Positions 6,713-13,181 of a stretch of 64,000 bases of DNA are shown here, in pieces. Both the position numbers and the translations under genes were made by a program. Each line of letters starts with the position of its first letter. The first letter of the stretch is position 1. The DNA is from Patellaria atrata CBS 101060 (Eukaryota), in assembly GCA_010093705.1 (NCBI GenBank), contig MU006090.1:2100022-2164021 (forward strand). The letters are read 5' to 3'. The notes beneath the pieces are model-generated. The model ran no database searches. It saw nothing but the letters and a program-made list of their open reading frames with translations, and was not told where the DNA came from.

Positions 6713-7303
6713 ATGCAATCCAAGATCTTCGCTGTTTTGGCTTTCGCTGCCGTTGCCCACGCCCAATTCCCACCGGCTTGCAGCGACATCCCTAAGTGAG
6801 CTTATACTTATCTCTGATTCATCAATCGAAAAACATACTAACCATAACTTAGCGCTTCCCTCATCTCTGCTGTCCTCCCCGTCATTCCAGCGAGCGCAAT
6901 CACCAACCCTACCGGCTTTGCTCAAGATGTTGCCTCTTCCTTCCAGGCTGGAGAGACCCCAACCTGGTTCTCGATGCTCCCATCTGACATTCAGTCATGC
7001 TTTGCCGCCGGCGCCATCGCTACCGAGATCCCTTCAAGCATCATGACCGTCACTGGCGATGCTACCATTCAAACTTCCACCGTCGTATCCACCGATGTAA
7101 TGACTTCAACTGGCGAGTCCACCACCGCGACCATCACCGAGGAACACACCTCTACAATGACTGATGTTGTCTCCAGCGAGACTGAGACCGACTCCGCTGC
7201 CGAAGAGACCTCCACCTCCACTGGCGGCGCAGCTCTCCCTACCGCTGTCATTGGCGCCGGTGTCGCTGGTGCATTGGGCTTCCTTGGCATGATTGCCTTG
7301 TAA
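6713..7303 (+). CDS. Small secreted Ser/Thr-rich GPI-anchored protein
   Basis: Signal peptide MQSKIFAVLAFAAVAHA, intron 6796-6852, S/T-rich stalk, hydrophobic GPI signal ...GAGVAGALGFLGMIAL. Confidence 0.85.
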
Positions 7304-7766
7304 ATAACTCTCACATGTGTTTTCATGTTGACGGGGTTCTAGCTGGTGACACTGGTTCGGTGAATTTGTCAAAGTCGATACAGGAGTATTGGCTTGGGGA
7401 ACGCTGTACAAATATGATTTGCCAAAATACTGGCCGAAAATTACTTCGAGACCCTTGAGGGTCTATGTCGTTAAATAATAAATTCTGGTGTTTGCCCCTG
7501 GTTTATAATCCCCCCGTATATTGCTGTTTCTTATTGCGTGAATATTGCCCATACCTAAGCTTACCTAAAATATGCTTGCTCAATTCTTTCCAACATGGCT
7601 CATAACAAAGCTGATATTTAAATTTGTAACCAATGTACCGTATTGTAGGTAGGGTTATCAATAAGGTATCTTCTTGACATCAAACGGTTGGTTACGGTAT
7701 GTTATTAGCTTGATGTTGCGTGATTAGCTCTTGTAGTCGGCCGTTTTCGCTTCGCGCCGCTAGTAG

Positions 7767-7772
7767 TATAAA
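7767..7772 (+). promoter_or_regulatory. TATA box of the snoRNA host transcript
   Basis: TATAAA about 135 nt upstream of the first donor site (7906). Confidence 0.5.
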
Positions 7773-7940
7773 GTCTTCACCTAGCTGCACCTCACTACAA
7801 CTCTGCAAGCTTCCTTTGCAACTTTACTGTTTCATCATGTTCGCTTCAATGTGCTATTCTATATGCTCTCTAGAAAGCTTTCAACATGCGCTGGCATGTA
7901 TAAAGGTATGAACCCCTCTTATCTACCTCTAAGTCTTTAC

Positions 7941-8018
7941 ATGATGAGCTTTCCCACGAACAATCCAAATCCTACAACGATCATGAAGGATTACCCACTT
8001 ACTCTAGAATTACTCTGA
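7941..8018 (+). ncRNA. Box C/D snoRNA 1 (D guide to 18S site equivalent to human Am159, SNORD45-like)
   Basis: C box ATGATGA 7941, D box CTGA 8015; CTCTAGAATTAC (8002-8013) is complementary to conserved 18S GTAATTCTAGAG; GAACAATCCAA (7958-7968) is complementary to LSU TTGGATTGTTC. Confidence 0.85.
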
Positions 8019-8175
8019 TATTCATACCTTCATTCGTAGACGCAAACTATCGGTCATAATCAATTGCTAACTACTATTTTGTGGATCAGATAACAGCCCG
8101 AGCTTAACAAGCCCACTCACCAGATTTTTTTTCTAAAGGTACGTCACCTCGTTCAATTATCTCATACATCTTTGG

Positions 8176-8260
8176 GTGATGATATTATGACTTTGGAAAG
8201 GCATTCCTCGACCTGAACCACACATGTCGAACCTGTCAATTAAGTTTCAGCCTTGTCTGA
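8176..8260 (+). ncRNA. snR41: Box C/D snoRNA 2, snR41-like (18S Gm1126 guide)
   Basis: C box GTGATGA 8176, D' CTGA 8213, C' ATGTCGA, D CTGA 8257; 16-nt guide TTAAGTTTCAGCCTTG complementary to 18S CAAGGCTGAAACTTAA. Confidence 0.88.
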
Positions 8261-8368
8261 CGCACATATTCCTCGTTCTCGCATCCTGAATACTTGTGGA
8301 TATCCCGCAACTAATTCTTTCCTAAACAGGTACATACCCACTTCAGATAACCTCGATCTCTTCCGTAC

Positions 8369-8494
8369 ATGACGAACACTTGAACGACAGGCGGACAGAA
8401 ATCTACTCTACGACGGAACGTCCGCTGAAAGCAAGGCGTACAAACCTTGTGGACGTTTTATTGCTGAGCTAGTTGCTGAGAACTCGTTACCTGA
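8369..8494 (+). ncRNA. snR70: Box C/D snoRNA 3, snR70-like (18S Cm1639 guide)
   Basis: C box ATGACGA 8369, guide CGACAGGCGG (one mismatch to 18S CCGCCCGTCG) before D' CAGA 8396, extra pairing GTACAAA 8438-8444 to adjacent 18S TTTGTAC, D box CTGA 8491; N+5 falls on the C1639 equivalent. Confidence 0.75.
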
Positions 8495-8613
8495 TCTACA
8501 CTGCACTCTGTTCAACACGATTTCTGTAGTATTCGTCGCGGGACACAAGGCTAATGCTCTCTTTGTCATAGGTATATATTATTTGTTTTTCTATTTTCAG
8601 TAGAACCATCCAC

Positions 8614-8698
8614 ATGATGATCACTATTCACACTGTTTGATCCGGATGCCTTGTAACGAGGGCATTCAGAGATGAACGTATAACACTGAAAATTCTGA
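8614..8698 (+). ncRNA. snR51: Box C/D snoRNA 4, snR51-like (25S Um2729 plus Um2724 guides)
   Basis: C box ATGATGA 8614; TATTCACACTG plus D' TTGA; ACACTGAAAAT plus D CTGA 8695; both complementary to 25S ATTTTCAGTGTGAATA. Confidence 0.85.
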
Positions 8699-8926
8699 TT
8701 TAATGAGGTATGTGCTAGTCACTCTATTCCAGGTTTCTCAGTTAACATGGACCTAGCCTGATTATACATGGTTCTTTGGCCAGCTTTTCTCTTTTTTCAT
8801 AGAGACTCTATCCGATATCATGCTGATTCATCCCAATCGTCGAATAGGTGATGCATACTTGCTCAAGTAATACTTAATCCATCATTCTGGTAAGTAAATA
8901 TTTCGTGTGATTATGTTCAGGCGTAC

Positions 8927-9006
8927 ATGATGATCTTAACTGTTCTATCTATGCTCTTTCCGAGATAAATCATTGACGAGCAAATCAAATCACCTTGGAG
9001 AACTGA
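8927..9006 (+). ncRNA. Box C/D snoRNA 5 (SNORD55/U55-like LSU Cm guide)
   Basis: C box ATGATGA 8927, D' CCGA 8960, C' TTGACGA, D CTGA 9003; TCACCTTGGAGA complementary to LSU TCTCCAAGGTGA. Confidence 0.85.
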
Positions 9007-9397
9007 ATGCTTTATCCTCCAATATTCTTTTCGTTTAGAGAAGTAGTCCGAAACTAATGTTCTGGATAGGCCCGACATCTGACAGATCGATAGCACGAGA
9101 TTTCGAATCATGTAAACTCATCTCTTAATTCCTGTTAGATTCAGTAAAATCAAAGAGAATATCAGTATCATAACATCATATATACCATTCAATGAACTCT
9201 ATGTGTCCTGCAGCTCAAATCCAAACCTTCAAAGTTCCACTTAATCTTTTTTATAGCCCAAATGATTCACATTTTTGTTACTCCAGTGACTCTATCCGCT
9301 CCATCGAATATATCTGCCACACTGTTAATTGTTCTTCCTTGAGATATATACCAATTCAGGATTTGTCATTAGCACCCAAGGCTTTCCCATCATTATC

Positions 9398-10417
9398 TCA
9401 TGCGTCTCCGGCGTTTAGTAAATCTGCCAAAGAGTCTAAGCACCTTCCTTGGCCATCATGTTGATGCGCAATCTCCAACAATGCCTTCCTAGTCCCTCCA
9501 ACTCGAAGCCCATAACCCTTCGGGCATGCCGTACCAATGTCGAATGACTTACATACGCTTCCCCGGTCTGAGAGGGACCGGAGTTCTTTCAACGCATTGC
9601 CCCAACGAGCTGGGCAAGAGAATTGCTCGGATCTCGAAGCAGCCACAGCGAACTGCAGGAGATCTCTCCCATCCAGTCTCGAATCTACACGGAGCTGTGA
9701 CCACAATTCCGCGCGTGCTTCGGCATCCACTCCAGGCGCAGACCTTTTCAGGCTAACTTTGTTCGCCTGCCCGATTGCATGCAGCGGATCCCAGTCACAA
9801 AGCACCGGCTGGCCAGTCTTCATCTTAACACTCATCCTGTCCTTGGAGAGAGTGAGATGAAGCTGTGTGATCTTCCCGTCCTGCAGTAGATCATGCCTGT
9901 GCAACATCATATCCTGGCGTTTTCTGGCAATCCATTCCCTCCTCTCTTCTTCCGGCACAGCATGTATACCGCAGAGGAAGCAGCAGCGTCCTAGCCGCAA
10001 TGACACCGTTAGTTTAGTCAGATACGCCGCCCTTGGAGACTTGAGGAAGGTGTCTACGGCCAGCTTGTGCGAGTATTCGTAGGGTGGGAGCGTGAAAGTG
10101 TTGTGGGCGTAATAGAACCCGAGAGTCTCCTTCCGCAGTTGGCGAGATGTTTGTAACATGGGAGGGACGCGTGAGAGGAGTGGGATCGGGTCGGGTGATT
10201 GGAGTGCTTGAGCGTAGACCTCATTGCGAAGTTCGCCGCGGAGGTCGAAGAGGCGGAAGATTGGGCCCGTGGGGTTGGTGGTCTCGTCCGCGACGACTTC
10301 GGAGGGATGAGCTGTCTTGATGCGCTTGGAGGGACGAACTCCTTCAGTATCGCCTGTCGATCTGGGCGGAAGACATTTGAGCTTGAGCTTAGTGCGATAG
10401 TCGCGAGGTTGAGACAT
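9398..10417 (-). CDS. F-box-like/2EXR-type fungal protein, paralog A
   Basis: FRLFDLRGELRNEVYAQAL...PPMLQTSRQLRKETLGFYYAHNTF signature. Confidence 0.75.
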   Translation of the reverse strand: MSQPRDYRTKLKLKCLPPRSTGDTEGVRPSKRIKTAHPSEVVADETTNPTGPIFRLFDLRGELRNEVYAQALQSPDPIPLLSRVPPMLQTSRQLRKETLGFYYAHNTFTLPPYEYSHKLAVDTFLKSPRAAYLTKLTVSLRLGRCCFLCGIHAVPEEERREWIARKRQDMMLHRHDLLQDGKITQLHLTLSKDRMSVKMKTGQPVLCDWDPLHAIGQANKVSLKRSAPGVDAEARAELWSQLRVDSRLDGRDLLQFAVAASRSEQFSCPARWGNALKELRSLSDRGSVCKSFDIGTACPKGYGLRVGGTRKALLEIAHQHDGQGRCLDSLADLLNAGDA

Positions 10418-10985
10418 ATTTGTAGGTTCACGACATGGGTAAATTTTCCCTTTGCGATGCAGAAGGTTGTGGTTGTGTAGCGTTCGGTCGATTGGTGCGC
10501 GTCATGTAGAGTTGGCAGGTGCAGATGTTTTCTGCAAAGCTCCGAAGAAAGAAAATTTATCGAGGACTTTATAGTAGGACGATTTTCTCCTATGCATGCA
10601 CATAATCCCTGCTCTCTTTACCTTGTGGATTCGCAGCTCGCATTCACTGTCTTCACTGAGGTATATTCACCTCGAATCTTCACGTGCCCGATCAGCCACA
10701 TGAGAATTTCACAACCGCTGTTTGCTGCGGTCCACGGTGTGTTTCTCGCCTTTTAACTTGCCGATTTTGCGTGGTAGATTTTCGGTATAATAGAGAATCG
10801 ATGACAGCAGTGGGCAAAGCGAAGTTACAGTGGCTGGCCATATACCACATGACCTGGTAGTATCTGACGATAAGAGCGGGTGAGTTAAGTCATTTGATGT
10901 ACGGAGATAATTGAACGTATGGAGATCATTCTACATATGACCGATTCGATGTTACTGTATGGCAAGAAAACCGAATATCTTCCAA

Positions 10986-12002
10986 TCAAATCCGACGCGG
11001 GAAAGAAAGGGGAAACCCCATGAAATCGCGATAACCACGCTCACGTCCTTCAAAATTCCCCCTTTCGTCATCGTAGTCCAAACCGTGCGTCAGGAAAAAC
11101 TCATCCCCAGCGTTCTCGAAATCCCCTTGCACCTTCACCAAAGCTGCGTCCGAGGTTGCCCAATTGCCAACCATGCATCTACCACCTTCGTCGTGCCGAT
11201 GTACTGTATTCCTCCGCTCTGCCATCCCGCTCATCTCCAACGGGAGCGTGTAGCCGTTCGGACACGCGGTATCGACGTTCCACCAGGCGCACTGCTTGGA
11301 GTTCGGGTCGAGGTAGCCTTGGGTGTTTAGATGTATATCCACTGCTGCGCACTGAAAGACCGTTGATCTCCAGACCTCGATGGCGGCCACGAGGAGATCC
11401 CTTGCGTTTGTTCGGTTCCCGGAATTGCGCAGCTGCTTCTTACAGCGGTTGATGTTGAAAGGGAGGACGGGACGGTCCGTTCGAAGGTCGGAATAGAGTT
11501 TGTATTGGACGTATACCTGCAGGTCACCTGCACCACATCGCAGCGGCGCGTTAGAGCCGTACCATGGACTTTTAGGATCCAAACGGTCCAGTATATCGGA
11601 AGTTTTGACTTGGAGTACGAGTGTGCAGTCCTTCTTACACCTTGAAATGCGCACCGGGACTATAAGGCGGGTTATATGCTCTAAACCGCACCAATTCTTC
11701 ATAGTTAGGAAGCGGTTAAAATTGCGCTCAGTCTCTGCCATCGTTTCTATGTGTTGGACCTGGTTTGGGAGCTGGAAATTGTTCTCGCAGCAATAGATAA
11801 GGAAGCCTTCTTTGCGAATTTGGCGGCTGACTTGGAGAAGCGCCGGTGGGCGGGCTAGAAGGTTTCTCGCCCGACCTCGTTGTTGGTGTTCTCGAGGAGT
11901 AATGAGTGCGTGCGAGTATATCAAGTTGCGCAATTCCCCGGCAAGCTTGAGAAAGGGGAAAGAATTACGAGAGGTTTCCGAGAAGTCGACTGGAGTTCCC
12001 AT
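10986..12002 (-). CDS. F-box-like/2EXR-type fungal protein, paralog B
   Basis: FPFLKLAGELRNLIYSHAL...PPALLQVSRQIRKEGFLIYCCENNF signature. Confidence 0.75.
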   Translation of the reverse strand: MGTPVDFSETSRNSFPFLKLAGELRNLIYSHALITPREHQQRGRARNLLARPPALLQVSRQIRKEGFLIYCCENNFQLPNQVQHIETMAETERNFNRFLTMKNWCGLEHITRLIVPVRISRCKKDCTLVLQVKTSDILDRLDPKSPWYGSNAPLRCGAGDLQVYVQYKLYSDLRTDRPVLPFNINRCKKQLRNSGNRTNARDLLVAAIEVWRSTVFQCAAVDIHLNTQGYLDPNSKQCAWWNVDTACPNGYTLPLEMSGMAERRNTVHRHDEGGRCMVGNWATSDAALVKVQGDFENAGDEFFLTHGLDYDDERGNFEGRERGYRDFMGFPLSFPRRI

Positions 12003-13181
12003 ATTGACTGAGGTGGTGAGACATGAAATTTTCTCGCAACTGTTCCAGAATTGTAACCTGCGGTGGTACTGTTTGCTTGCTAAATCCTTTGATATAGAAG
12101 AAACAGCAAACGGAGGTGTACAGAGGATGTTCCTGCAGCTCCGAAAACATGAACTTTTTGAGCTTTTAGTGTATGTTCAAGGTAATAAAACCGCGTGGCT
12201 AGTATGTAGACTGACACGGAATAGATTGGACGGAAGTAGAGGGAGGTTATAAGAGATTCTGGGAGCTGGAGAAGGTAGGGACTCCTAAGATTGACTCACC
12301 GGTGTACTTCAGTACCCCAAAGATTACTACTTTAACTTAGGTGCTGCATTTTGGTCAAACGTCACTTCATTGTGAAGTTATATAAAATTCATAAGTAAAG
12401 GTAGGGAATTTGACAGATGAAGTGTTGTTCAGCAGCGCAGCATACAATGTCGGGAGGCTAAGGATAAGCTTACCATATTATTCTTCCCAGCACTTCTACA
12501 AGCTTGAGAAGTCTACATCTCTCCGTAACTTTACTTTGAAATCGTTCTGTGTTTAAAGATTTGGTTGGAATGGATGATGGATATTCAGCTTACGGATATC
12601 AATACAGTGTAGGATCCATACTTAACAATTTGGTGAACCGTACCAAAGGTAATGAGTCCTAAACGTGTATGATCCCGCCACAGGATCGTGATGGGTTACG
12701 GGTTCACTCTTCCTTTGCAGTTTCATTCCCTGTGGTTTCGGGATGAGGGGATTCATTGAGCGTCCGACGTTGATATTTACTTGAAGTTAGTAAGCAAACT
12801 TAGGTACCTTAAGGTAGACTCCCGCCCGACTTTAGCTCGTGGTGGCCAGTACGCATTGGTTCCCGTGTTTGTAAAGCCATGAATATTTCTGTACATTCCA
12901 TTCATTCTGGACAGTCTAGCTATTCGTGATGAGATAGCGCCCTTTTTGATCAAAGCCTGCAGCATAAGGTGGCGATGAGAAGGGAAAACGGGTCTGGGAT
13001 TAGAGGGATGTCTTAGAAATAAAAGAAAGAGTCGGGTTTCATTTCTACATTGCATATAATCAAAAGCTCTTCTGAATTCGTATGCCTACGGATGGAAGCC
13101 TACACGACGCCGAGTATATCTAATCGAAAGACATCCAATCTGTTACCGGTGGGAATGGTAAAAAGGATAGCGCCCCAGCTA

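Follow-up and report, generated by a model that had tools for sequence, protein, structure and literature searches.

In Euascomycetes, the genes for the box C/D snoRNAs snR41, snR70 and snR51 are intronic; the cluster has a U45 intron at one end and a U55 intron at the other and lacks two of the expected exons in between, and snR51 is itself split by an intron (intron B) that separates its antisense element from its box D (Luo et al. 2013, PMC3596301). In the same work, 42 ESTs show that the introns are removed 5'-to-3', with 18, 14 and 10 ESTs at the successive steps. From the equivalent locus of Aspergillus fumigatus, cDNAs were obtained for Afu-455 (92 nt) and Afu-277 (100 nt; predicted targets Am97 and Um2706), northern blots showed Afu-294 at 80 nt and Afu-336 at 130 nt, and Afu-455 together with Afu-277 and Afu-294 was described as an intergenic cluster with three members (Joechl et al. 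2008, PMC2377427). Three members were also cloned in Neurospora crassa, namely CD17, which is listed as a U45A/C homologue, CD9 and CD6 (Liu et al. 2009, PMC2780460). Canzler et al. (2018, PMC5824354) assign the snR51 family CD_6 a D target at 25S-2724 in Onygenales and in some Dothideomycetes, and the extra-pairing loop of yeast snR70 was shown to be functional (van Nues et al. 2011, PMC3116282). Outside the ascomycetes, Cryptococcus carries intronic snR41/snR70 in a non-coding host and has intron-split snoRNAs (bioRxiv 10.1101/2024.10.08.617225).

We analyzed a 64,000-nt stretch of contig MU006090.1 of Patellaria atrata CBS 101060, hereafter the window, to which all coordinates refer. The locus at 7906-9069 is snoRNA cluster III of filamentous ascomycetes, which was published in 2013 and is therefore not new. 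The initial annotation of this DNA had proposed an intronic snR41-snR70-snR51 order extended by one snoRNA on each side within a non-coding host, and this is the Euascomycete arrangement of Luo et al. (PMC3596301); however, it had offered as new a layout that those authors had already described, and it lacked two zero-length exons and an intron nested in snR51. The region 7800-9180 has 35-47% GC, is richer in A+T than its flanks and contains no ORF of 80 codons or more. SnoRNAs 1-5 have their C boxes at 7941, 8176, 8369, 8614 and 8927, followed by the D-box sequence CTGA at 8015, 8257, 8491, 8695/8758 and 9003, and each of the five main introns has a GT donor, a CTRAY-type branch site and a YAG acceptor, with the C box 35-42 nt from the donor, confirming the claim of five introns with one C/D snoRNA each. 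There are six introns in total, three of which lie back to back. The features are as follows.

7767 to 7772, plus strand: possible TATA-like element upstream of the probable first exon, proposed from sequence only
7790 to 7905, plus strand: probable exon 1 of the non-coding host, preceding the first donor; 5' end guessed
7906 to 8089, plus strand: intron 1 (intron A of Luo et al.); donor 7906, branch site 8066-8071, CAG 8089, alternative acceptor 8096
7941 to 8018, plus strand: snoRNA 1, U45-like (N. crassa CD17 family), from its boxes and guides to the genome's own rRNA
8090 to 8138, plus strand: exon 2, 49 nt, from splice signals
8139 to 8329, plus strand: intron 2; acceptor abuts the intron 3 donor (8329/8330), leaving a zero-length exon
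8176 to 8260, plus strand: snoRNA 2, snR41 (Afu_455, N. crassa CD9), from Rfam RF01860 at 59.8 bits and its guides
8330 to 8571, plus strand: intron 3; abuts intron 4 (8571/8572), leaving the second zero-length exon
8369 to 8494, plus strand: snoRNA 3, snR70 (SNORD43-like), from its guide and relatives; SNORD43 match below the Rfam cut-off
8572 to 8847, plus strand: intron 4, outer intron holding snR51; branch site 8822-8827
8614 to 8707 and 8757 to 8761, plus strand: snoRNA 4, snR51, in two pieces; 99 nt spliced
8683 to 8698, plus strand: third guide of snR51; 11 bp to 25S-part 2369-2379, +5 target U2372, snR67-like
8708 to 8756, plus strand: nested intron B, 49 nt, separating the A100 guide from the distal D box, as in Luo et al. 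2013
8848 to 8889, plus strand: exon 3, 42 nt, from splice signals
8890 to 9069, plus strand: intron 5 (intron C of Luo et al.); donor 8890, branch site 9053-9058, TAG 9069
8927 to 9006, plus strand: snoRNA 5, U55-like (Afu_294), from Rfam RF01506 at 49.3 bits and a weak snoZ101 match
9070 to 9200, plus strand: probable last exon, following the last acceptor; 3' end guessed

The spliced host would be ~335 nt long, given guessed transcript ends, and its longest ATG ORF has 29 or 46 aa depending on the acceptor chosen. The cluster is single-copy in the genome. A sigma-70 promoter scan was disregarded as inapplicable to a eukaryote. The yeast names snR70 and U55 are ones we take to apply, partly from position. 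Upstream, at 6713-7305 (plus strand), lies a small one-intron gene with a Ser/Thr-rich product that has hydrophobic ends and thereby resembles a secreted GPI-anchored protein. Downstream, two adjacent minus-strand ORFs of 367 and 396 aa (9398-10501 and 10986-12176) have N-terminal 'L..ELRN..Y' and C-terminal 'TACP.GY' motifs in common and are probable tandem paralogues.

Rfam matches over the cut-off were limited, in the whole window, to RF01860 (Afu_455; cut-off 48) and RF01506 (Afu_294; cut-off 43), both in the cluster. A laxer search added snR51, snR67, snR41, snoZ101 and SNORD43, all below cut-off, and snoRNA 1 had no Rfam match. For a chance control, we counted C boxes followed 45-140 nt later by CTGA with a perfect 10-mer antisense to the genome's own rRNA ending 1-2 nt before the D box. 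Four of the five cluster C boxes passed, whereas the rest of the window, 125,638 nt over both strands, gave no pass; among 2000 dinucleotide shuffles, one pass occurred in 5 and two in none. The exception, snoRNA 3, did not pass because its guide lies at the D' box and contains a mismatch.

Guide targets were assigned on contig C51, which carries a full 18S, 5.8S and most of the 25S rRNA; positions follow this genome's numbering, with the 25S counted from the start of the partial sequence (25S-part), and all genome-wide checks were pattern searches of the 28.7-Mb assembly. The ITS1 of C51 gives the impression of a style unlike that of its ITS2, and C114 carries a second, fragmented 18S; a chimera, a contaminant or a degenerate copy is possible. 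The target contig may thus include sequence of another origin, although the targets themselves are sites in the conserved core. Against this rRNA, nine guides pair in the +5 register; the guide of snR70 has one mismatch. The guide lengths of 10-16 nt claimed initially hold for snoRNAs 1, 2, 4 and 5 (10-16 bp) and not for snoRNA 3, which has 9 pairs around one mismatch. Elsewhere in the assembly, near 486170-486230 of contig C9 (L130), a perfect C box is followed by a possible guide, perhaps of another box C/D snoRNA.

SnoRNA 1 pairs through its D guide with 18S A155 (12 bp) and through its D' guide (D' box 7971-7974) with 25S-part G2565 (11 bp). The D guide of snR41 is directed to 18S G1125 (16 bp) and its D' guide (8199-8216, with the D' box at 8213-8216) to 18S A1572 (12 bp). 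The middle bases of the latter guide vary among the listed relatives described below, perhaps together with lineage-specific 18S, and in 8 of the 52 listed loci the D' slot holds a 25S-A455-type guide instead. N. crassa CD9 has the A1572-type D' guide as well, and Table 1 of Liu et al. gives no such target (PMC2780460).

To compare the cluster with its relatives, metagenome contigs were scanned with the snR41 guide, which gave at least 114 stretches, and the 80 listed were analyzed. The snR51 D' guide lies downstream in 58 of these 80, and 52 of the 58 are distinct; our counts cover these 52, the 22 stretches with no downstream snR51 D' guide being left out, and because the loci are related to one another the counts are not independent events. 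In the 38 distinct listed clusters with full flanks, near-exact motifs detect a U45-like member in at least 33, a U55-like member in at least 31 and both in at least 26.

The boxes, the splice signals, the pairing with the genome's own rRNA and the conservation are observed directly, and we are highly confident in the reading that a disposable, non-coding, spliced transcript carries five box C/D guide RNAs, that the abutting introns are removed stepwise and that an extra splicing event assembles snR51. A polymerase II transcript with no coding role would act as the carrier, introns 1 (U45-like) and 5 (U55-like) would be ordinary snoRNA introns, and the end-to-end introns 2-4 would leave in 5'-to-3' order, with a donor restored or a later acceptor used at every step. 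As is general for snoRNA introns, the excised introns would be debranched and trimmed as far as the C/D core that Snu13/Nop56/Nop58/Nop1 occupy. The five RNAs would guide 2'-O-methylation of 18S and 25S rRNA. Expression, splicing and rRNA methylation are predictions for P. atrata itself; it is in other species that the order of splicing was shown (PMC3596301), and stable RNAs come from A. fumigatus (PMC2377427) and N. crassa (PMC2780460).

The abutting introns bear on whether the transcript is spliced at all. The first junction (introns 2/3) is kept in all 49 of the 49 distinct listed relatives, and the second (introns 3/4) in 35 of 49 by a strict pattern; among the 14 loci that it missed are some with variant donors or with what look like short exons. 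In S. cerevisiae, the polycistron is cut by an RNase III enzyme. A transcript processed in that manner, unspliced and with its splice signals as mere relics, would agree with the identical core order of the yeast cluster and with the unusual zero-length exons. We consider this explanation extremely improbable, given the intact donor, branch site and acceptor around every snoRNA, the universal first junction among those 49 relatives and the spliced ESTs of Euascomycetes (PMC3596301). Within the spliced reading, the gaps of 47, 49, 55 and 46 nt from D-box end to branch hexamer reported initially for snoRNAs 1, 2, 3 and 5 came out the same when recomputed. SnoRNA 4 lay outside this spacing rule because the nested intron had been missed: the branch site is 123 nt from the inner CTGA, compared with 60 nt from the distal D box in the spliced form. 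Likewise, the C-to-D sizes of 78, 85, 126 and 80 nt stand for snoRNAs 1, 2, 3 and 5, while the 85 nt given for snoRNA 4 is to be replaced, most likely by 99 nt without the nested intron.

In two members, snR70 and snoRNA 5, a guide departs from those of the relatives. The identity of snR70, like that of snR51, rests on guides and relatives, both being below the Rfam cut-off in the window. Its C box is a variant one, as in its relatives, and its D' guide (D' box 8396-8399) pairs with 18S C1638 through 9 pairs around a single A-C mismatch that is private to the window (found in 0 of 51 listed relatives). A loop at 8438-8444 is complementary to 18S 1625-1631, and this extra-pairing element is present in all 52 distinct listed loci, the window included. 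SnoRNA 5 pairs through its D guide with 25S-part C1523 (12 bp), and its D' guide (8949-8963, D' box 8960-8963) forms 10 bp with 25S-part 452-461 (A455) and has three or more mismatches to 5.8S. The D' guides of 29 listed relatives, all scored against the rRNA of this genome, pair over at least 10 nt with both 5.8S and 25S in 21 cases; 1 pairs in this way with 5.8S alone and 7 pair with neither. We rejected the D' guide as a conserved 25S guide, as the relatives pair better with 5.8S.

These deviations could mean that the gene is as described but partly decayed, with an snR70 that performs poorly at 18S C1638 and a U55-like D' guide deprived of its 5.8S target. The private mismatch speaks for such decay, as does the loss of a 5.8S pairing of at least 10 nt that 22 of the 29 listed relatives have; moreover, a search of the genome for a second snR70-like gene gave 7 pattern matches, none with an upstream C box. 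A search for a second 5.8S-A43 guide gave 7 matches versus 8 in the reversed control, and the two with a C-like box within 45 nt have a mismatch in the guide core. Nevertheless, partial decay seems unlikely to us, since the snR70 guide retains 9 pairs and the extra-pairing loop, and the changes in snoRNA 5 pair perfectly with the 25S site in a way that resembles retargeting. From the sequences compared, the D' guide of snoRNA 5 looks to have gone from dual pairing with 5.8S A43 and 25S to a perfect 25S match by retargeting rather than decay, and it would then exemplify guide evolution via a dual-pairing intermediate.

The remaining member, snR51, has three guides. Its D' guide (D' box 8637-8640) pairs with 25S-part U2377 over 11 bp. 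The 13-bp guide for 18S A100 (8695-8707) is followed directly by the donor of intron B, and the distal D box (8758-8761) lies one base past that intron. Until intron B has been spliced out, the guide and this D box are not in the +5 register for A100; splicing of the inner intron would thus place the A100 guide beside its D box. The branch-like TTAAC of intron B near 8742-8746 is non-consensus. The third guide ends in the inner CTGA (8695-8698), which also forms the first four bases of the A100 guide. In 36 of the 52 listed relatives, an intron of 46-68 nt follows the A100 guide and the D box comes a single base past it, and in 9 the guide runs into the D box directly; in the others, the donor is seen and the locus is then cut off (2), the intron is shifted by 3 nt (2), the gene is duplicated (2) or the locus is cut off (1). 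At L034 and L035, intron B lies 3 nt upstream of the usual place, inside the A100 guide, which splicing restores. In three of the nine listed intron-less loci (L023, L053 and L065), the A100 guide belongs to a second copy further downstream; snR51 there has its 25S D' guide and its A100 guide on two C/D units ~300 nt apart. The nested intron also affects detection. The Rfam snR51 model RF01214 (cut-off 44) scores 29.5 bits on the unspliced DNA of the window, and among five loci scanned, all three intron-less ones reached 54-59 bits and the two intron-bearing ones gave 32.7 bits or no listed match; the nested intron probably lowers the score below the cut-off, which would explain why Rfam misses snR51 in these fungi.

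On a rival reading, which is that of the initial annotation, snoRNA 4 exists solely as an unspliced RNA of 85 nt that stops at the inner CTGA, and intron B has no bearing on it. Such a form would have a perfect C box, a CTGA at the 85-nt distance and an 11-bp guide in the +5 register to U2372; this D target is listed for CD_6 by Canzler et al. (PMC5824354), and one copy each in L047 and L060 has this form. We nevertheless find it very unlikely. In 36 of the 52 listed relatives, the A100 guide has been retained along with intron B and the distal D box while the interior of the intron diverges, and the 13-nt A100 guide occurs exactly twice in the 28.7-Mb assembly, in snR51 and in the rDNA, leaving no other exact A100 guide in the genome. 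Furthermore, the A. fumigatus cDNA is 100 nt long (PMC2377427), the N. crassa clone does not stop at the inner CUGA but continues up to the donor of intron B (PMC2780460), and the gap to the branch point would be 123 nt.

Assembly of snR51 by splicing leaves room for a second use of the inner CTGA. In many filamentous ascomycetes, snR51 may serve three targets through two D boxes, of which only one can be used at a time, and may yield two forms from one gene, a proposal drawn from sequence comparison that we hold tentatively and rate as somewhat short of probable. Box C with the inner CTGA would direct methylation of 25S U2372 (yeast Um2724); box C with the splice-created distal D box would direct methylation of 18S A100, the inner CTGA then serving as guide sequence, and which D box is chosen, or whether splicing occurs, would determine how methylation is weighted between the small and the large subunit. 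Four observations suggest two forms by alternative D-box use. First, 33 of the 52 listed relatives have the third guide in register, and none of the nine intron-less ones listed does. Second, L047 and L060 carry a duplicated snR51 in two abutting introns. In the first copy, both 25S guides and the inner CTGA are retained and the A100 guide has decayed; in the other, the A100 guide, the distal D box and intron B (shifted by 3 nt in L047 and 2 nt in L060) are retained and the 25S guides are missing. Third, in L067, where snR51 has two nested introns, intron B and a longer one right after the third guide, the latter interrupts the junction between the third guide and the inner CTGA. Fourth, in the genome of P. 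atrata, the third guide at the inner CTGA was the only such combination of guide and box found by pattern searches, and a search for D'-type U2372 guides, which is blind to divergent boxes and intron-split guides, gave 1 match versus 2 in the control. We had considered L047 and L060 as loci without an A100 guide and rejected this, as the guide is present in the second copy. On the other hand, a pure splice switch is opposed by the first copy in L060, which seems to keep a spliceable remnant of intron B, by the cloned A. fumigatus (PMC2377427) and N. crassa (PMC2780460) RNAs, which fit the long form, and by the inner CTGA being nearer to the branch site after splicing of intron B (74 nt) than before (123 nt). 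If true, one snoRNA gene would supply two guide forms that act on different ribosomal subunits, and this would be a simple way for rRNA methylation to become uneven. We did not find this two-D-box reading in the literature searched; the supplements of Luo et al. 2013 and Canzler et al. 2018 may hold it.

Among the described systems, the CD_6 family of Canzler et al. has the same third guide before the inner CTGA and treats it as a D guide; the main text draws no link that we found to intron B or the A100 guide, and the supplements may list secondary guides (PMC5824354). The main text of Luo et al. similarly contains no mention that we found of the third guide at the inner CTGA or of the snR41 and U55 D' guides, which its supplements may list (PMC3596301). 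In A. fumigatus, Afu-277 has the size (100 nt) and the predicted targets of spliced snR51, Afu-294 is predicted for 5.8S Am43, with which the D' guide of snoRNA 5 in the window no longer pairs (PMC2377427), and Afu-336 is, by our inference from place and size, snR70. In N. crassa, both guide sequences of CD17 (targets 18S-Am154 and 26S-Gm2875) are identical to those of snoRNA 1, CD9 corresponds to snR41 and CD6 to snR51; CD6 is called exonic with one guide, and its listed sequence passes the inner CUGA and ends at the intron B donor, and the Um2682 guide is on CD49, not CD6 (PMC2780460). The snR41-snR70-snR51 cluster of S. cerevisiae has its core order and guides in common with the window, but it is unspliced, its snR51 has no intron and it has no U45 or U55 members. 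Cluster III of Luo et al. is the closest match, with the same five snoRNAs in the same order, a non-coding host, two missing inner exons and intron B (PMC3596301); we found no structural difference from it, and the P. atrata locus is one more genome with the cluster published in 2013, its value being that of annotation.
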